64,000 nt of DNA from a virus. Its lineage: Duplodnaviria; Caudoviricetes. The notes beneath the pieces were generated by a model. It saw only the letters and a program-made list of their open reading frames with translations. It did not search any database and was not told where the DNA came from. Below, piece after piece: positions 4,638 through 37,393 of this stretch (its first letter is position 1; each line of letters opens with the position of its first letter). The position numbers and the translations under genes were made by a program. The stretch is from IMG/VR virus record IMGVR_UViG_3300033144_007704, positions 433 to 64,432 of that record. One strand, written 5' to 3'.

Positions 4638-5201
4638 ATGAAATTATCTCAGTATGCAAAATTAAATAATGTCACCTATAGAACAGCATATCGACATTGG
4701 AAGACTGGTATTATCAAGGGAAAACAATTACCAACTGGCACTATAGTAATCAATGAAGAAAGATTGAACAATAATTATATCATATATTGCCGAGTATCTT
4801 CTCACGATCAGAAAAAGGATCTAGAAAGACAAAAGCAAAGACTTCTTGATTATTGCAGTGCCAAGGGCTGGCTGGTAAAACACGTATATTCAGAAATTGC
4901 GTCCGGATTAAACGACGATAGGAAAATCCTAAACAAGATATTGTCTTCTGATAGTAATATCGTTGTTGAATACAAGGACAGATTAACCAGATTTGGATTT
5001 AATTACATCCAATTATTAATGGACAGGATAGGTAATCATGTTATAGTTATTAATGAAGACGAGAATAAGGATGATCTTATCCAGGATTTTATATCTATCA
5101 TTACGTCCTTTGCTGCGAGAATTTATGGACGGAGAAGAAGTAAACGAAAAACAGAACGCCTAATAAAGGAATTGAAATATGAAGCTTCAGCGCAGCAGTA
5201 A
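4638..5201 (+). CDS. tnpA: IS607 serine transposase TnpA
   Basis: N-terminal MerR-like HTH (MKLSQYAK..VTYRTAYRHWKTG), catalytic YCRVSS..QK.DLERQ, SEIASGLN, DRLTRFGF, SFAARIYGRR. Confidence 0.95.
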   Translation: MKLSQYAKLNNVTYRTAYRHWKTGIIKGKQLPTGTIVINEERLNNNYIIYCRVSSHDQKKDLERQKQRLLDYCSAKGWLVKHVYSEIASGLNDDRKILNKILSSDSNIVVEYKDRLTRFGFNYIQLLMDRIGNHVIVINEDENKDDLIQDFISIITSFAARIYGRRRSKRKTERLIKELKYEASAQQ

Positions 5202-6359
5202 AATACACTTTGACAAGTGGTTAACGAAAGCGAAAAAGGATAAAATTAATCTTATCCTCAACGAGTACGCTTCGGTAGTTAATTATTTTATTATCACTTA
5301 TGAAACCGATATTCCCGATACGTCTCAATTTGATTTGAGTTATGCCGTTTACATACAAAAATGCATAAAGGATACCAAAACATGGTTATCTGCCAGAATG
5401 ATAAAGAACGCGTTCTCAGAAGGCTATGGTATGGTTCTTGCTGCAAAAGAAAAAGCAGATAAGGATAATCCTTATGTCAGGCCAGTACATCATGGAAAGA
5501 AGGCTATTTTATCATCTACAATTAACACTCAATCAGAAGATGTTTCTACCGTAGATTTTGATTTTAATGTGACCTTATGCTGTATTGGAAACAAAATGAA
5601 AATATCCGTTCCGCTTAAGAAACATAAACATTGGAACAAATTGAACACTCTCGGAAAAAGATCGAAATCCATCACTCTCACCAGAAAATATATTCAATTC
5701 AGCTTCGAGATTAAGACCGAGCCGAAAAAAGAAAGCGGAAAACTGCTTGGTGTAGATATCGGAATCAATAAACTATTTGCAACCAGCGACGGGAGTTTCT
5801 TTGGAAGGGGATATAAGCTTCTTCTCGAAAAACTTACCAGGAAAGAACGTTGCAGCAAAGGCTATTATCGTACCAAGAATGAAATCAAAACTTTTATTAA
5901 TGTCGCAATAAATAATATCTTCAAAGACGACTTGCAACTCATTGTCGTTGAAAAGCTAAAAGGCTTAAAGAATAAAATGAAAGAGAGACGGCGACTTTCT
6001 AAAAATATTCGTCGATTTATCAGTGCTTGGGCGTATAGATATATTTTAAAAATATTCGTCGATTTATCAGTGCTTGGGCGTATAGATATATTTTAAACCG
6101 AATCGAACAGGTTTGCGAAATCAACCGTGTTAGTTTTCGGTCTGTTCCGGCGTATAATACTTCTATAACCTGCCCGAGATGTAGCCATGCCGATAAGGGA
6201 AACCGAAAGACACAAGAGAATTTTCGATGTCTGAATTGTGGTTATGCAGGCAATGCCGACTTTGTGGCATCCCAGAATATCCTTGTTCGATTTCTTACGG
6301 GACCCTACTGTGCCCGTTTCAAACCCGATGACTATTTGGCTTATTTGTCAATAGAATAG
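5179..6359 (+). pseudogene. tnpB: TnpB frameshifted by a 47-bp tandem duplication
   Basis: ORF stops at 6096. The missing C-terminus (NRIEQVCEINR...CPRC...CLNCGYAGNADFVASQNI...YLSIE*) continues in another frame to TAG 6357-6359 and matches the intact copy at 60308..61480. Confidence 0.9.
6000..6097 (+). repeat. Perfect 47-bp tandem duplication inside tnpB
   Basis: AAAAATATTCGTCGATTTATCAGTGCTTGGGCGTATAGATATATTTT occurs at 6001 and 6048; single copy in the sister element. Confidence 0.95.
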
Positions 6360-6441: not shown

Positions 6442-6798
6442 GGGGCTGAATTGGTTTCGACATGAGACTTGAATTACCTCATGCATGCCGAGAGGTGTCG
6501 TAAACTCTCGTGAATAATTACGGCATAGTAGAATAATCGGCGAAGAATTACTTAAAGCTGCTTAAAGCAGCGCTGCGGAATGCCTTATCGTTTTGGTGTT
6601 TAATCGCGGTTCGATATAAACGATAGCCCGTGATCGCGAGGGGGTGAATAAGTTGTCTCGCGAGATCTTCCTACGTAACGAATAGTGCGTCGATTTTGCC
6701 GGTTAAATGTTTATCGATAAAAACCAACCGGACAAGCATGTAGAGTGAGATATGAGAGTTATCATGGACAGGAATTTCGATATTCCTCAGCTCCACCA
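6442..6798 (+). ncRNA. ssrA: tmRNA, tag reading frame GEELLKAA* at 6539..6565
   Basis: 5' GGGGCTGAATTGGTTTCGAC and 3' GGAC-AGGAA-TTTCGATA-TTCCT-CAGCTCCACCA; G3:U70 Ala acceptor stem; GCATGC/GCATGT helix; ATAATC before resume codon; tag ends in AA. Confidence 0.95.
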
Positions 6799-18203: not shown

Positions 18204-18281
18204 GTTGGCTGAACGCAAATTGGATTAGCGGATAGATTGTGGCTCTATTGTTTGCCGGTTCGAATCCGGTCGGTCAACCCA
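18204..18281 (+). tRNA. tRNA-His (GTG)
   Basis: G-1 plus TTGGCTG/CGGTCAA acceptor, C73, encoded CCA; anticodon arm ATAGA-ttGTGgc-TCTAT; T arm GCCGG-TTCGAAT-CCGGT. Confidence 0.9.
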
Positions 18282-19705
18282 ATTTTATGTCAAAAAAGGC
18301 AAAAAATTAAGTTATTTAATACCAATAACTTAGTTAAAATGTTACTATTAGCGAAGACAACTATTTGGATGCGGATTATTCGCGATAAATTTAACGTGAA
18401 TTACAGTGATAAAATATAAGAAAAGGCGTCTCAGTTATTTTATGTGTTAAAAAATTCAGAAAAAGTTATGTGTTTTTCTGGGAAAAAATAAGGAGGAAAG
18501 GAAAACGGATAGTCTAACTACGGGAATAAAACAAAAAAGAGAGAATTGGAATAAATTTGAAGCTATTATTCGTAAGCAATTTGAGCATGGTGCAGAGAAA
18601 TATAAATTTGATGAGCAAATGGAATGGACAGATATTATATGTCAGATGTCGCCAGGAAAAACCGGATTTGATTGGATATTACAAACAATAGCAAAATATG
18701 CAGGAAGATATTTACAATTCAAAAGAGAAAAGGATTTAATTAAAATAGCTACTTATTGTTATATAGCGTGGTTAAAAGGCGGATATCATTTATTAAAAAC
18801 ACCAGATGACGATAGTTTATCATCGTAAAGAGAAATTTAAAAGGAGGATTTATAAAATTTTTAGAATTATCTGATTTGCATAATCTTGATTGCCAAAAAA
18901 AATCAGGAAACAAAAGATAGATATGAACTCTGGCAAAAATTAGAGGATGGACGTTTAATAATGCTGAGAAGCTGGAATAAAAAATCTCTTTTGTTTATTA
19001 CTATTGATTTTAATTTAATTACTAATTAATAAAATAGGAGAAAATGTGAAATGTTTAAAATGTAAGCGTGAATATTCTTTTAAAGATTTGAATAAAATTG
19101 ATGATATTACAATTAATCAACTTGATGATGACCCAAATATTGAAGTTAAGTTTTATTGCCCAAACTGTGAAGAAGAAATTGCTTTTGTAAGAATACACGA
19201 AGATGATTTAATTATAGTAGATTATTAAGTTCCATACAGGCATTTATAGAGCATAATGATATGCGTATGCCGTGCAAAATGGAGGAGAATATTATGTGGG
19301 GAGAAATAAACCTTTATTGCCCAAATTGTGAAATAGAGCTAAAAACAAAGTGGAAGGCAGGAATACTATATCACTATTGTGATGAATGCGGTTATGAAGT
19401 TACTAATAGTTATAGCATTGCCGTAAAATTGTGGGAACAATATCTTGAAATATTAGATATGATAGAGCAGACAAAAACAATAACCTTAATATCTGCTTTT
19501 GATGAACAAAGAACAAAACTCCATCATAATCTAATAAAATTTTATGAACAGGAGAATCAAGATTTTGATATAACATTATTTAATAATTTATGTCATAATA
19601 TCAATAGGGTGGCAAGGCTGGAAGATGGAATAAAATATAACTCCAAGATATTAGCAAAAATATCATTTAGCAATAATCAATTAAAGTCTGCTATGCAGAA
19701 ATGAA

Positions 19706-19790
19706 ATATAATGAGAAGAGTATGCCGTGCGATTTCGGAGAAATCAAACGGCTACTACAAATAAAACAAGCACGGACACTTATGTTATGT
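19706..19790 (+). repeat. attC-like imperfect palindrome (site B)
   Basis: ATATAAT...TGCCGTGC [loop] GCACGG-A-CAC...GTTATGT, between a stop (19704) and SD GGAGG/ATG 19806. Confidence 0.5.
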
Positions 19791-20050
19791 GCTGTGGAGG
19801 AAAGTATGAAGAATTTTAAAACAAAGCCAGTGAGTAAAGCACCAGCGTTACCAAAAGACAAAGAACAACTTATAATTGATCCACCATATATAATGTTCGG
19901 ATATCCATCAATTCCAACATCTCAATCAATAATTATGAAAGTTGGTGGATTACGTAAAATATTAGACGAATTAAATGATGAAGATAGTTTGCGAATAGAA
20001 TGGTTTGCTGGTTTTAGAGCTACAGAATATAGCGTAATACCACATAAATA

Positions 20051-20172
20051 GCACATAACGACCAAACGTGCCACGTATCGAAAAAGGGTTTGTGGTAGGA
20101 TGCGGAATCTGAAACCCTGAAATAACCAATCAGATCGCAGTAAACGTACCACGTGGACACAATGTTATGCGA
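20051..20172 (+). repeat. attC-like imperfect palindrome (site C)
   Basis: ACATAAC...GTGCCACGT [inner GGGTTT/AAACCC] ACGTGG-A-CAC...GTTATGC, between a stop (20051) and SD AGGAGG. Confidence 0.6.
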
Positions 20173-20997
20173 TACGAAAGGAGGAATAGATGTCATATAA
20201 ACCAAAGGAACGGTGCAAAATTATCAGGATGAATATAACGAATTGTGTTGGTATGGGGCTTCACAGGTTTCTTTCGGAGGAAAAATGAATGTAAAAGAAA
20301 TTTTAATAGAGTGGCTTAAGGATCACGGCTGTGATGGACTTTGCAATACAGATATCGGATGTGGCTGCGGATTTACAAGTTGCATTCCAGGCGATACTTA
20401 TTCAAATGATTTCATTCCTTGTGAAGACATAAATGAAAATGAATGCCAGCCTGCATATAGGTGGGAATGTGAAAAATGTATGGAAAAATCAGAATGTTTA
20501 TGGTATGATGAAGGCAAAACTGATGGATGTTGGAAAACGACTAAACAGAGGGCCGGATAACGTCAAGACAAGATTCATTATTTGAATTCAAAAAAAACCC
20601 TGGAATTCAATCCACAAAACAGAATACACGTGGGAAGATAACCCTTTTGTTTTCATACACAGATTTGAACGATATAAAAGGAAATGAAATGAATAAACAC
20701 GAAATTAGATTAGAATCAGAAAAAAGAATGTTGCAATTAAAAAAAGGTGATGAAGTAACTAATATTTGCACAACTGATATAGACCAGATGCATCATTGTT
20801 GCTTTGTTAAATATGTACTGAATCCATATAAAAATAAATATGGAGTTCCGATGTGTAAAAAATTTGTGAAATGTAGGAAATACATCAGTGGAAAATATCA
20901 TATTAGCAACTTTAATATAAACGTGATATATAAAGGGCATTTGACACAAGAAGAATGTGATAAATTATATGCCCCGATATGGAAAGCAGAATTTAGT

Positions 20998-21113
20998 ACA
21001 TAATCCGGCGTGTGCCATATATCGAAAAAGAGTTTGTAGTAGCGTGTGTAATCCTGAAACTCTGAAATAACCAATTAGATCGCAGTAAGCACATGATGTG
21101 GACACGCTCATTA
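20998..21113 (+). repeat. Diverged copy of site C (site D)
   Basis: Shares TATCGAAAAAG.GTTTGT.GTAG, CTGAAAC.CTGAAATAACCAAT.AGATCGCAGTAA and GTGGACAC; compensatory GAGTTT/AAACTC; overlaps the TAA of the upstream gene. Confidence 0.7.
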
Positions 21114-21145
21114 CTCAATATTTCGTTAAGTGAAGATGATAAAAG

Positions 21146-21201
21146 AGGAGCAGAAATGAAACTATGTTTATTGCGAAGATAAAGATGGAAACATTGTTTA
21201 T
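21146..21201 (+). pseudogene. Internally deleted paralog of the gene at 22863..23066
   Basis: GCAGAAATGAAACTATG joined directly to TTATTGCGAAGATAAAGATGGAAACATTGT (YCEDKDGNIV versus YCEDKYGNIV). Confidence 0.65.
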
Positions 21202-21357
21202 ATAGATATAAGTGTTACCTTGGGTTAAGGAGATATTAAACAGTAGCCATTAACGTGAAAGAATCTATGGTTATCTAAAGAAACAGTTTGACACAAAAAG
21301 ATAAAAAATAACTTGACAATACAGAAGATAACATTATTTTATAGAAAAGGAGAAAAT

Positions 21358-21537
21358 ATGAAATTAAATAAATTTGCTGAAAAACTTGGGATTACATACC
21401 AGACGGCGTGGAAATGGTATAAAGCCGGCAGGATACACGGAGCTTATCAAACTGAAACAGGCACAATACTTGTTCCTGAAGATGGCTACGTTAAACGTAA
21501 GGTCGTAACTGAAAAACTAAAAGAAGCTAAAAAATAG
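21358..21537 (+). CDS. Truncated IS607 TnpA (MerR-like HTH only)
   Basis: MKLNKFAEKLGITYQTAWKWYKAGRIHGAYQTETGTILVPE resembles the N-terminus of 4638..5201; no catalytic domain. Confidence 0.8.
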   Translation: MKLNKFAEKLGITYQTAWKWYKAGRIHGAYQTETGTILVPEDGYVKRKVVTEKLKEAKK

Positions 21538-21546
21538 TGTGATAAT

Positions 21547-22719
21547 ATGTTGAAAGCCTATAAAACTGAGATTAATCCAACCGGGGAACAGCGAATAAAG
21601 ATGAACAAAACGTTCGGAGTGTGCCGGTTTGTCTATAACTTATTTTTACAGGAGAATAAGAAGCTCTATAAAGAAAGCGGCAAATATATGTCGGGATATG
21701 ATTTCAGTAGGTGGTTAAATAATGAATTCATCCCGAACAACCCATCCTTTTCATGGATAAAAGAAGTTGGATCGAAAGCGGTTAAGAAGTCAATCATGAA
21801 TGCAGATACAGCATTTAAAAAGTTCTTTAAAAAAGAATCTGGTTTTCCGAAATTCAAGAAAAGAAACAGCAGAAAAACGTGTTATTTTCCGAAGAACAAT
21901 AAATATGATTTAACAGCAGAACGTCACCGCATCAAAATCCCGACATTCGGATTTGTGAGGCTTAAGGAATATGGGTATATTCCAATTGAAGCCAGTGTAA
22001 AATCATGTGTTATCTCAATGGATGTCGACAGATATTTCGTGTCAGCGTTATGTGAAGTGAGTGAATGCGAATCGCAGAAAAAAGGGATACTTCTGGGTAT
22101 TGGAATCGATCTCGGAATCAAGCAACTTGCTGTCTGCAGTAATGGTAAGATGTTTGAAAACATTAACAAGACACAAAAAGTTAAGAAATTAGAAAAGAAG
22201 TTAAGGCGTGAACAACGTGCCTTAAGCCGGAAGATGCTGAAAAGAAAAAAAATAAAAAAGGAGGAGTCTATCAAAAGCCGTCCGGCGAATATCATAAAGA
22301 ACATTTTGAGAGTGCAGAGATTACATAGACGATTACGTTTAATACGGGTCGAATATATAAGAACTGTGGTGAATTCACTTGTTTTAGCCAATAATTTACC
22401 ATCTTATGTAGCGATTGAAGATTTAAACGTGCGAGGCATGATGAAGAACAAGCATCTCAGTAAAGCTATCCAGCAACAACTGTTCGGATATTTTCGTCGA
22501 TATCTTATTCAGAGAACGAATAAGTATGGCGTTGAGGTTCGGATAATTAATCGTTTTTACGCGTCCAGTAAGATATGTAATGCTTGCGGATCAATAAATG
22601 ATAAGTTAAAGTTATCGGATAGGATTTATCGATGTGTGCATTGTGGAAACGTCATCGACCGCGACGTGAACGCTTCGTTCAATATACGAGATTGTAATGA
22701 CTATAAAATTGCAGCATAA
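21547..22719 (+). CDS. tnpB: TnpB RNA-guided endonuclease
   Basis: MLKAYKTEINPT, FGVCRFVYN, GFPKFK, RuvC GIDLG / IEDL / DRDVNA, Zn ribbon CNAC...CVHC. Confidence 0.95.
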   Translation: MLKAYKTEINPTGEQRIKMNKTFGVCRFVYNLFLQENKKLYKESGKYMSGYDFSRWLNNEFIPNNPSFSWIKEVGSKAVKKSIMNADTAFKKFFKKESGFPKFKKRNSRKTCYFPKNNKYDLTAERHRIKIPTFGFVRLKEYGYIPIEASVKSCVISMDVDRYFVSALCEVSECESQKKGILLGIGIDLGIKQLAVCSNGKMFENINKTQKVKKLEKKLRREQRALSRKMLKRKKIKKEESIKSRPANIIKNILRVQRLHRRLRLIRVEYIRTVVNSLVLANNLPSYVAIEDLNVRGMMKNKHLSKAIQQQLFGYFRRYLIQRTNKYGVEVRIINRFYASSKICNACGSINDKLKLSDRIYRCVHCGNVIDRDVNASFNIRDCNDYKIAA

Positions 22720-22859
22720 TATTATAGTACCGTCGGCTAAGACGGGAATTTACGCCTGTGGAGTGTTATATCAAACGCGAGTAGCTTCGGCCAAAGCGGA
22801 TACAGTGAAGCAGGAAAACTCAAAAGTTTATAGATATTTATAGGCTTTTGTTAGCAGCA
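22720..22859 (+). ncRNA. TnpB omegaRNA scaffold / element right end
   Basis: TACCG..GGCTA...GGGAAT.TA.GCCTGTGGA.TGTT.TATCAAACG...GAAGCAGGAAAACTCA...TTTTGTTAGCAGCA, conserved with 37234..37393. Confidence 0.75.
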
Positions 22860-35540: not shown

Positions 35541-36487
35541 TGACTAAATTAGAAAGAATAATATATTTAAGAAAGATGAAAATATATTTACAGGAAATAG
35601 ACAGAATTCTGGATAGATTAGATAAGGTTGATATATATGGAGATATTGTGCAGAATTTTGAAGACGAGTGTCGGAAAAGGCATACAAAACGTATCATAAA
35701 AATGATTAATGACGATCTCAAGAGGACCAGACAATGAGAATTGATTTTATATGTCCTCACTGTGGTCAATGGTGGACCGGAAATGTTCCGGTAGCAAAAG
35801 ATGATAAAGATCCCATTGTGGATTATTGCCGCAAATGCAGCACGAAAACAATTGGAAGAGATAGTTCAACAAAAGTTAAGAAAAATTAGCAGAAATAAAA
35901 GGAAAAGATGATATATTTAACTGATAAAGAAATTGAGGAAATCATCTGGGATGCATTTTGTAAGATTCCTTCGAGCGGAAAGGCTCAACAAGAAAGAGAA
36001 TGGTTAGTGGCTCTTGTTGCCGAGGTTAAAGAACGCAGAAGAAATGACAGGGAAAGTAGAATAAATGAGAAAACACACGCTTAAAACTGGAGATATTTTT
36101 ATAGACGGAACAGGTTTTACGTGGATTAATGGAAAAAAATATTTTGATTTTGATATCTTTGAATACAGAGAATGTGAGAATGAAGGAAAAGGGTTTCGCT
36201 ATAATAGGGACGGTTCTGAAACCTATTATTACTGGGCTCGCCCCGAAGAATCCATGCTTTTTAAAAATGTGCCGAAAGACATAATGTTCTCATTTAAACA
36301 TGGCAGCAGCGAATTTCAAATTAAACGAGAGAAGCTTGAAAAATGTAAATCAATTTCGGAAATTGTAAGAAAATCAAATTTTCAATTCAGAACGCCAGAA
36401 GAAATTAGAGCAGAGGACTCCACGATTTTAATTCAGCTATTTCCGTGAAGGAATTAAAATGATGAAAAAAAATATAAGGAGAAATTC

Positions 36488-37027
36488 ATGCCAGTAAATT
36501 GGGAATCGTTTAAATCGCAACTAACAAGCTATTTTGCTTCGAGATCTGCTTCAAGTGAAACAGAGGCAGCGCAAAAGATAGCAAATCTTTATCATGCGGC
36601 AGCAAAAACAGCTAAAGTAAATATAACCGGATGCAAATTAATAGATAATGGGAATAAAGCCAGATTCTACCCTATTATCCTACAGGGGCTCAATTCTGCC
36701 AAGGCGTTGCAATCTGGAAATGCTGTTTCGCTTATCAGCGATGCCTGGAATGCCGCCGTTATAGCATATTGGACGGGAGCTATTATATCGAGCAGTTATA
36801 CTGGATTGCCACCAGGATTATCTACGCTTGGTCCTCCTATAACAGTACTTTCTCCGGGAGTATGTAATTTCATAATGCCTTCAGGAGCACAGCCTCCAAG
36901 TGCTATGCCTGATGCAATGGCGATGGCATTCAAAGCCCACTTATTAACAATAACGGGTGTTTATGCTGCCATGACGTCTTCGACTCCGCCAGTACCGATT
37001 GTAATTCCGTGGACGGGGATGGGTTAG
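36488..37027 (+). CDS. Putative baseplate-associated virion protein
   Basis: Ala/Pro/Gly-rich, AYWTGA and terminal PVPIVIPWTG; composition unlike its neighbours. Confidence 0.45.
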   Translation: MPVNWESFKSQLTSYFASRSASSETEAAQKIANLYHAAAKTAKVNITGCKLIDNGNKARFYPIILQGLNSAKALQSGNAVSLISDAWNAAVIAYWTGAIISSSYTGLPPGLSTLGPPITVLSPGVCNFIMPSGAQPPSAMPDAMAMAFKAHLLTITGVYAAMTSSTPPVPIVIPWTGMG

Positions 37028-37092: not shown

Positions 37093-37393
37093 AGTCAATG
37101 CGGAAGCATTAAAAATGATCTGAAATTATCAGGCAGAATATATCATTGTAGTGACTGCGGATTCGTTTGTGACAGAGACGTAAATTCTGGCATAAACTTG
37201 AAGAATGCTCAAAAATACAGGATAACGGCATGATAAATTTAACAAAATACCGATGGCTAGTCGGGAATCTAAGCCTGTGGACTGTTGTATCAAACGAGAT
37301 TAGCAACCCCATAAAATGGGTTGTGAAATCGGACAGGGCGAAGCAGGAAAACTCATTAATCTATAAGATAATTATAGGTTTTTGTTAGCAGCA
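37093..37393 (+). mobile_element. TnpB remnant: last 46 codons plus omegaRNA / right end
   Basis: SQCGSIKNDLKLSGRIYHCSDCGFVCDRDVNSGINLKNAQKYRITA* (TGA 37231-37233) aligns with the end of TnpB 21547..22719, followed by the homologous scaffold. Confidence 0.85.

Follow-up and report, generated by a model that had tools for sequence, protein, structure and literature searches.

A small conserved pseudoknotted RNA occupies two of four palindromic gene spacers in a phage sequence and recurs in tRNA regions of other phages

What are the imperfect palindromes that separate single small genes in a 64,000-nt stretch of phage DNA (positions 433 to 64,432 of record IMGVR_UViG_3300033144_007704, estimated to be 33% complete; hereafter, the window)? 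Four such sequences, sites A (19251..19275), B (19706..19790), C (20051..20172) and D (20998..21113), had been described in a first-pass annotation, and all of these coordinates, on the + strand, have been borne out; each site is located in a spacer between + strand open reading frames (ORFs). The main idea of that annotation was that the sites are recombination sites similar to the attC sites of integrons, and its alternative was that they are a repeated structured RNA. The analysis has revealed that the interiors of C and D, which had been overlooked, consist of one highly conserved pseudoknotted motif, to which the interior of B is unrelated. The alternative was therefore right for C and D, since both belong to a family with a covarying pseudoknot: each is a gene for, or a copy embedded in a transcript of, a small conserved non-coding RNA that is read from the + strand along with the small genes around it. 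This RNA is probably a stable one that acts in trans after being cut out of its transcript.

The core of copy C extends over 20079..20150 (+ strand; alignments A1, A2 and A3) and includes, in this order, CGAAAAAG, the 5' strand of helix A (20086-20091), GUGGUAG, the 5' strands of helix B (20099-20104) and helix C (20109-20111), the 3' strand of helix A (20112-20117), which creates the pseudoknot, UGAAAUAACCAAUCAGAUCG, and the 3' strands of helix C (20138-20140) and helix B (20145-20150). In this copy helix B has five of its six pairs, with one A-C mismatch and one G-U pair. The core of copy D (21023..21095, + strand) contains helix A at 21030-21035 / 21057-21062, helix B of 7 bp at 21043-21049 / 21089-21095 and helix C at 21054-21056 / 21083-21085. 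Since helix A crosses the bipartite helix formed by B and C, the fold is an H-type pseudoknot, and a compensatory change in helix A is already visible within the window (GAGUUU/AAACUC in D versus GGGUUU/AAACCC in C). The minimal core of the family is about 72-75 nt long, with about 50 near-invariant unpaired bases. Its consensus begins with CGAAAAAG, helix A 5' (GGGUUU), GUAGUAG, a variable helix B 5' and a short A-rich linker (mostly AAAC), continues with helix C 5' (CAG or CUG), helix A 3' (AAACCC), UG and an optional hairpin, and ends with AAUAMCCAWUNAGAUCG, helix C 3', a short linker rich in U and A (UAA, UAG or UUAG) and helix B 3'; as a whole the 3' block reads UGAAAUAMCCAWUNAGAUCG.

All three helices covary, including the pseudoknot helix A, which is outside the covariance model. 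In alignment A1, a structure-blind MAFFT alignment of 36 rows, helix A is 99.1% paired and shows double changes at five of its six pairs (the strands observed include GGGUUU/AAACCC, AGGUUU/AAACCU, GAGUUU/AAACUC, GGGCUU/AAGCCC, GGGUUC/GAACCC and GGGGCU/AGCCCC), and helix C is 97.2% paired (CAG/CUG, CUG/CAG, AAG/CUU and GAG/CUC). These values were reached by none of 500 shuffles, and partners slid out of register were only 34-66% paired. In alignment A3, a model-fitted alignment of 51 distinct rows in which helices B and C, but not helix A, are part of the model, the 16 pairs are 89.0% paired versus 68.8% after shuffling, again with 0/500 shuffles as high. Pair cells with G-U (35) outnumber those with A-C (13), an excess that fits folding of the sense strand.

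The distribution of the motif has been analysed with a covariance model (R1) built from 17 minimal copies, which gave 60 matches at E <= 0.01 across 70 sources. Within the window R1 detects only D (21019-21103, 84.3 bits, E 3e-15) and C (20075-20158, 77.1 bits, E 1e-13), scores that are partly high by construction because both copies are in the seed alignment. Independent support for their membership comes from two conserved blocks, derived from C, D and the first copies outside the window, which as exact patterns were found at 45 and 19 viral-contig loci. BLAST with C led to a copy in an unannotated gap of the tRNA region of Vibrio phage 2.275.O (MG592671, 171,579-171,664). Carriers found by BLAST include seven Vibrio phage records (among them Va1, phiKT1024, phiTY18, pv27 and 2.275.O), Bacillus phages Eldridge (NC_030920, from 100,721) and Kirov, and Pectobacterium phage PM2, and the PM2 copy used as query retrieved 32 phage records, with hosts in Proteus, Klebsiella, Pectobacterium and Escherichia. 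Metagenome contigs added six copies that belong to the sub-type of the window, with AAUAACCA and one base fewer before helix C. In bacterial and archaeal genomes the 19-nt pattern of the 5' block has 78 loci, only four of which are confirmed by R1; the other 74 gave no R1 match at E <= 0.01 and are probably due to chance, so the family occurs almost only in phage sequence. There are two, one and one copies in three complete genomes of 325-366 kb. In the locus of Vibrio phage 2.275.O (L004 2760-3400, positions 171340-171980 of the record; L-numbers label the individual source loci scanned for the motif) an 800-nt unannotated gap around the motif contains more T-arm-like GGTTCGATTCC strings, and on this basis probably holds unannotated or unusual tRNA-like genes.

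The ends of the RNA are flexible, optional hairpins can be inserted into it, and two further architectures occur. One is a circular permutation, found in PM2 (NC_028940, about 75,730-75,810, complement), Escherichia coli phage mogra (MN850579, about 100,450-100,545) and Proteus phage Stubb (NC_048086, about 36,890-36,990, complement): the order starts with the 3' block, helix C 3' and helix B 3', continues through a loop to the 5' block, and the RNA is closed by the stem that elsewhere is the internal hairpin. According to pairings read by eye, helices A (GGGUUA/UAACCC), B and C are maintained in the three phages. Carriers of the permuted form are T4-like and T5-like phages, and in mogra (Mosigvirus, T4-related) the motif is located between tRNA-Met and tRNA-Arg. 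A third architecture (L012, L016, L019, L036, L037, L045 and L047) retains the 5' block, helix A and UGAAAYACCCRAA, but in place of the remainder it has a stem formed between the region upstream of the 5' block and the region preceding helix A 3'; a U-run terminates some of the copies, and none has an R1 match at E <= 0.01. At L011 3112-3203 (- strand), a skipping-rope RNA (RF02924, 51.2 bits) is nested at the position of the optional hairpin, and since the insert of L014 is similar to that of L011, the motif can hold another structured RNA inside.

The genomic context of the motif was counted over the 58 matches outside the window, some of which are identical loci. Same-strand tRNAs are present in the locus of 31 copies, within 300 nt in 29 and within 25 nt in 17, and no opposite-strand tRNA was found. 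At L063, L050 and L040 the motif occupies the entire gap between two same-strand tRNAs, and at L057 it directly follows one tRNA, with the next 16 nt downstream. In tRNA slots (e.g. L035, L008, L050 and L063) the core begins 3-7 nt, and helix A 10-14 nt, past the CCA end of the tRNA. The family is oriented with transcription: of 51 distinct copies, 42 could be assigned relative to the local coding strand, 39 of them lying on it and three opposite to it, with nine ambiguous. In copies placed between ORFs the core is abutted by a long closing stem (L049, L052, L058, L062, L065, L055, L061 and C and D of the window; 12-23 bp in the other phages), copies in tRNA slots have none (L063, L050, L057, L035, L024, L015 and L008), and L051, L053, L056, L059 and L060 end in helix B followed by a U-run. 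The copy of L024 is 390 nt downstream of a GOLLD RNA. At L054 (9069-9488, - strand) the motif abuts a permuted two-piece transfer-messenger RNA (tmRNA) gene, which it overlaps according to one Rfam model. An ARAGORN tmRNA call at L005 (5226-5681, + strand) that spans a copy of the motif was rejected, as Rfam does not confirm it.

In the window, the conserved RNA is set in a closing-stem module that sites A-D have in common. Site C as a whole (+ strand) contains outer arms (CATAAC 20054-20059 / GTTATG 20164-20169), a closing stem P1 (GTG-CCACGT 20068-20076 with ACGTGG-A-CAC 20151-20160, A20157 being unpaired) and the conserved core, directly abutted by the closing duplex of -16.8 kcal/mol. Site D (+ strand) contains P1 (GTG-CCATAT 21012-21020 with ATGTGG-A-CAC 21096-21105, A21102 unpaired; -18.1 kcal/mol) and the core, with the stop codon of the upstream gene in its 5' flank, and it is 81-85% identical to C over about 94 nt (repeats D1 and D2). 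Site B (+ strand) has the module of C and D around an unrelated 39-nt insert (19731-19769), with outer arms at 19707-19712 / 19784-19789 and an inner stem of CCGTGC (19725-19730) with GCACGG-A-CAC (19770-19779) in which A19776 is bulged. Its fold is far better than that of shuffled sequence (z -3.46, 0/200 shuffles), but it is outside the motif family (R1 3.1 bits, E 1.6, filters off), and it has no Rfam match and no significant BLAST match among phage records. Site A (+ strand) is the 5' half of the module alone, a remnant between the stop codon at 19226-19228 and the Shine-Dalgarno sequence and ATG at 19294; it matches the 5' flank of B with 87% identity over 23 nt (repeat D14), has no stable fold (z +0.47), and a 3' partner was not found in the sequence.

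The details of these sites given in the first-pass annotation were confirmed. The proximity to stop codons holds throughout, A lying 23 nt after a TAA (19226-19228), B 2 nt after a TGA (19702-19704) and C on the last base of a TAG (20049-20051), with D containing a TAA (21001-21003). Strong GGAGG-type Shine-Dalgarno sequences follow A, B and C, with ATG at 19294, 19806 and 20190, respectively, and the inner stems with a single unpaired A on the 3' side are present in B, C and D. The outer arms are CATAAC/GTTATG in C, the TATAAT/GTTATG arms of B pair only with two G-U pairs, and D lacks a 3' outer arm. The 5' flank is common to A, B, C and D and the 3' flank to B and C, a likeness far beyond chance. 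The 3'-flank pattern GGACAC-N(0-4)-ATGTTATG has two matches in the window, B and C only, versus 0.01 expected. The + strand matches of the 5' pattern ATAAY-N(5-12)-RTGCC are four, exactly A, B, C and D, although the total on both strands (8 versus 5.4 expected) is not above chance.

Two other sequences near the sites resemble parts of the motif. The insert of B contains CUACUACAAA at 19752-19761 (+ strand), the complement of the conserved UUUGUAGUAG of copy D (with one G-U pair in the case of copy C), which could reflect an inverted remnant or pairing in antisense; since the + strand of the window contains the 9-mer CTACTACAA three times, a chance origin of this complement is also possible. 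In view of these three occurrences and the 3.1 bits scored with R1, the idea that B is a diverged or an inverted copy has been treated as unproven. At 20595-20645 (+ strand), in the spacer that separates the genes 20285-20560 and 20689-21003, there are AAACCCTGGAAT and CACGTGG strings that resemble the 3' half of the motif and the closing stem. This spacer (20561-20688) was rejected as a decayed copy, since the 12-mer AAACCCTGGAAT (repeat D12) is present but no R1 match was obtained with filters off.

The preferred reading is that of a stable trans-acting RNA released from a longer transcript. The RNA itself would be the product, compact, tertiary-folded and stable, and its action in trans would be on something that many hosts or phages share, most likely in the area of translation or tRNA handling. 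In tRNA arrays, the trimming nucleases of adjacent tRNAs would also release it. Where it lies between ORFs, the long closing stem, with its internal loop and bulged A, would insulate the fold, and it is most likely a site for a double-strand RNase (RNase III-type), whose cleavage would free the RNA, separate the cistrons and leave stable hairpin ends. Site B would be the same processing stem with a different insert and without cargo, and site A a decayed half. Several points weigh against this reading. The trans-acting function is a guess. RNase III processing is read from shape alone, and the closing stem of C is interrupted, with 9 + 6 bp versus 12-23 bp elsewhere. The flanking genes give no clue, since among 36 ORFs beside 21 copies the sole recurring neighbour is a ResIII/DEAD helicase, immediately downstream at three copies. 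In addition, A3 was fitted to helices B and C, so that its counts for these two helices lean towards structure, and the minimum-energy folds of C and D are no better than those of shuffles (z -1.55 and -0.95) in a program that is blind to the pseudoknot. Finally, the flanks of A-D are alike even outside the stems, from the stop codons on, a likeness that a model based only on RNA leaves unexplained and that hints at spread at the DNA level. A bolder version, doubtful but not far-fetched, is that the motif represents a new class of compact functional RNA of large virulent phages with many different hosts, a 'non-tRNA in a tRNA slot', with a new self-cleaving or other catalytic fold or with the role of a decoy or sponge for a universal component of translation, tRNA processing or host immunity, and that in the window it also serves as punctuation at which the early message is cut.

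The integron reading, in which A-D would be attC-like single-stranded DNA recombination sites of a cassette array, was a reasonable idea: the elements are imperfect palindromes, each containing an unpaired base, they occupy consecutive spacers that separate small genes, one at a time and mutually unrelated, and the DUF1874 RNA motif, a complex multi-stem motif in consecutive spacers, is discussed as a possible unusual attC in PMC5737381. The arms of C (ACATAAC / GTTATGC) are close to the RYYYAAC/GTTRRRY consensus, with one mismatch each, and only C has both arms near consensus; B has ATATAAT (two mismatches) and GTTATGT (one), D has ACATAAT without R', and therefore no 3' core site, and A has the 5' side only. 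The single extra base is on the opposite arm compared with integron attC sites. According to PMC5737381, attC sites are conserved mainly in structure and little in sequence, whereas about 50 near-invariant bases are shared here by phages of unrelated hosts, in a core that contains a pseudoknot and in which G-U cells outnumber A-C cells on the sense strand. The motif is found in tRNA slots entirely without the palindrome, the one or two copies per complete genome do not form an array, and no Rfam model matches the site region at E <= 10. In line with the statement of the first-pass annotation that the window contains no integrase, no tyrosine recombinase was found among the 101 ORFs scanned, in a record that covers about a third of the genome, so that an integrase may be encoded elsewhere in it. 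A HUH transposase or nuclease was not found among these ORFs either, but only a serine resolvase (4638-5198) and TnpB-type genes. Being copies of a widely conserved phage RNA, C and D are not integron-type recombination sites, and a role of this kind for the four sites is extremely improbable. No close relatives of this phage were found by protein search with the ORF downstream of C or by BLAST of 18900-21300 against phage records.

Three other explanations have been considered alongside the release of a stable RNA. Self-cleaving RNAs such as hepatitis delta virus (HDV)-like theta ribozymes, hammerheads and twisters are known in phages, and a ribozyme with a pseudoknotted core, which would cleave the transcript that contains it and in this way split cistrons or assist the release of neighbouring tRNAs, would account for the pseudoknot and the number of conserved unpaired bases, both of ribozyme grade. 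It would also fit the natural circular permutation of the motif, a feature common among small ribozymes. HDV-like ribozymes fold as a nested double pseudoknot of P1, P1.1, P2, P3 and P4, with a catalytic C in J4/2. The crossing of helices A and B, with the optional hairpin after helix A 3', follows the order of the HDV-like elements P1, P2 and P4, and two RAGATH-18 RNAs, a motif class found near ribozyme-associated genes, are present in the window. HDV-like ribozymes adjacent to phage tRNAs are documented in PMC10879173. On the other hand, the 7 nt between helix B 5' and helix A 3' leave no room for P3; L3 and P1.1 are missing as well, and helix C is formed by non-local pairing instead. None of the ribozyme families of Rfam has a match at E <= 10, and the distance of the core and of helix A from the CCA end of the tRNA contrasts with the flush position of theta ribozymes. 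The permuted form shifts any internal site relative to the tRNAs, so the formation of tRNA ends is not a conserved role, and ends made of a stem and a U-run, as in the five loci mentioned above, were judged at odds with self-cleavage for other motifs in PMC5737381. Self-cleavage is unlikely.

The likeness of the A-D flanks beyond the stems, with starts at or in stop codons, could come instead from a small mobile DNA element similar to a miniature inverted-repeat transposable element (MITE), which would carry an RNA gene or hairpin, insert at gene ends and perhaps be moved by a transposase of the window, where IS607-type and TnpB genes are present. The repeats are not accounted for by tandem duplication of genes together with their spacers, because the flanking genes are not paralogues, and A and B look decayed or re-filled. 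Nevertheless, the 118 loci found elsewhere with the 3'-flank pattern are all apparently due to chance and none holds the motif, the closing stems of other phages are unrelated or absent, elsewhere there are only one or two copies, no target-site duplication is visible, and the RAGATH-18 RNA beside TnpB is unrelated to the motif; an origin of this type is quite improbable. Even less probable is a cis-acting leader, riboswitch-like or protein-binding, that would control the translation or stability of the downstream gene. Copy C is indeed 6-7 nt upstream of a Shine-Dalgarno sequence, several copies are 1-21 nt upstream of an ORF, which at three of them is the ResIII/DEAD helicase gene, and the degree of conservation is typical of aptamers. 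However, the 17 copies adjoining tRNAs include some that fill a tRNA-tRNA gap with no ORF to control, the downstream genes are mutually unrelated, no alternative pairing with the Shine-Dalgarno sequence is evident, and terminator-like stems end some copies.

The genes that flank A-D are unrelated to one another, and all are on the + strand. A 60-aa ORF with Cys pairs, similar to a zinc ribbon (19046..19228), precedes site A and resembles the next gene only over a short stretch (13 aa, E 5e-4); that gene encodes 136 aa between A and B (19294..19704) with a Zn_ribbon_TFIIB match. Between B and C there is an 81-aa ORF without family (19806..20051). A possible 32-aa ORF (20190-20288) lies ahead of the 91-aa Cys-rich ORF downstream of C (20285..20560), for which no relative was found in viral contigs, and a 104-aa ORF without family (20689..21003) precedes D. 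The nearest stable-RNA gene is a tRNA-His (GTG) at 18205..18281 (+ strand), 1.8 kb upstream of C on the same strand. Elsewhere in the window, a one-piece tmRNA (6442-6798, + strand, 107.9 bits) directly follows an IS607-like pair composed of the serine resolvase ORF (4638-5198) and a weak OrfB_IS605 ORF (5179-6093). Upstream of a TnpB gene (21547-22716, + strand; HTH_OrfB_IS605, OrfB_IS605 and Cas12f1-like TNB domains) there is a 74-aa helix-turn-helix ORF (within 21313-22816) that resembles a truncated N-terminus of an IS607 recombinase, and the gene is followed by a RAGATH-18 RNA (22755-22816, 70.3 bits) that is probably the scaffold of the TnpB guide RNA. The sub-terminal hairpins that flank tnpA/tnpB in IS200/IS605 elements, or a TnpB guide RNA at the 3' end of tnpB, do not account for the motif, since the TnpB-associated RNA here is this RAGATH-18 RNA, which is unrelated to it. 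The second RAGATH-18 RNA (37274-37349, + strand, 63.6 bits) is not preceded by an intact TnpB ORF, as neither of the ORFs there (36065-36445 and 36488-37024) has a Pfam match, and a further TnpB-like ORF (60308-61477, + strand) has no RAGATH-18 match reported after it. A reverse transcriptase ORF (55438-56490, + strand; RVT_1, E 1.7e-16) among large structural-type ORFs may be part of a diversity-generating retroelement.

The motif represents a widespread family that is found neither in Rfam 15 nor in the literature text that was searched. A scan of the whole window with Rfam at gathering scores gave nothing that covers it, and at E <= 10 neither C and D, in a scan of the site region, nor a typical copy (L035) had a match. 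Of the 103 matches obtained at gathering scores in 14 loci with the motif, 102 were to tRNA and one to GOLLD, and the motif was left uncovered, and six more gave only tRNA, tmRNA-type and one skipping-rope match. Core strings occurred only in unrelated papers and keyword searches retrieved no description of the motif in the texts covered, figures and supplements being beyond reach; the motif may be among the 10,006 candidate RNAs of PMC10690425. Stable RNAs of phage tRNA regions, such as T4 rnaC/rnaD, GOLLD and ROOL, have had open functions for decades. The present motif is small, with conservation similar to that of ribozymes or aptamers and a well-supported pseudoknot, and since it occurs in cultured phages of E. 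coli, Pectobacterium, Proteus, Klebsiella, Vibrio and Bacillus it is directly testable. Its presence in C and D also means that a palindrome at the end of a gene in a phage early region can be the closing stem of an RNA embedded there and not a recombination site.

Among known systems, the rnaC and rnaD RNAs of T4 (species 1 and 2) are, like the motif, non-tRNA stable RNAs of unknown function in slots of a phage tRNA cluster; they were rejected as members of the family, as the T4 sequences hold neither conserved block and the T4 tRNA region (L071) has no R1 match at E <= 0.01. Early genes of T7 are separated by RNase III processing hairpins located between the cistrons of a polycistronic transcript. 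The stem-internal loop-stem shape of these hairpins is similar to that of the closing-stem module of A-D, and B and C have a duplex and an internal loop, with cleavage only predicted here from the shape; unlike C and D, the T7 sites have no conserved cargo RNA. The DUF1874 motif is comparable in its consecutive intergenic placement, but it has no Rfam match here and the present motif is mostly single-copy and associated with tRNAs. The HDV-like theta ribozymes of gut phages, which according to PMC10879173 adjoin phage tRNAs and have the cleavage site within +/-5 nt of the tRNA 3' end, are also small, pseudoknotted, sense-oriented and often tRNA-adjacent phage RNAs; they differ from the motif, which lacks P3, L3 and P1.1, does not start flush with the tRNA 3' end and has no HDV-type Rfam match. 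GOLLD, ROOL and skipping-rope RNAs, described in Rfam and in PMC5737381 and PMC12286853, are structured RNAs of phages and prophages with unknown function near tRNA islands, a setting that the motif shares, and skipping-rope RNAs end in terminators, as do some copies of the motif. Compared with the three of them, the motif is far smaller (75-110 nt) and has a sequence and a fold of its own, unrelated to theirs.

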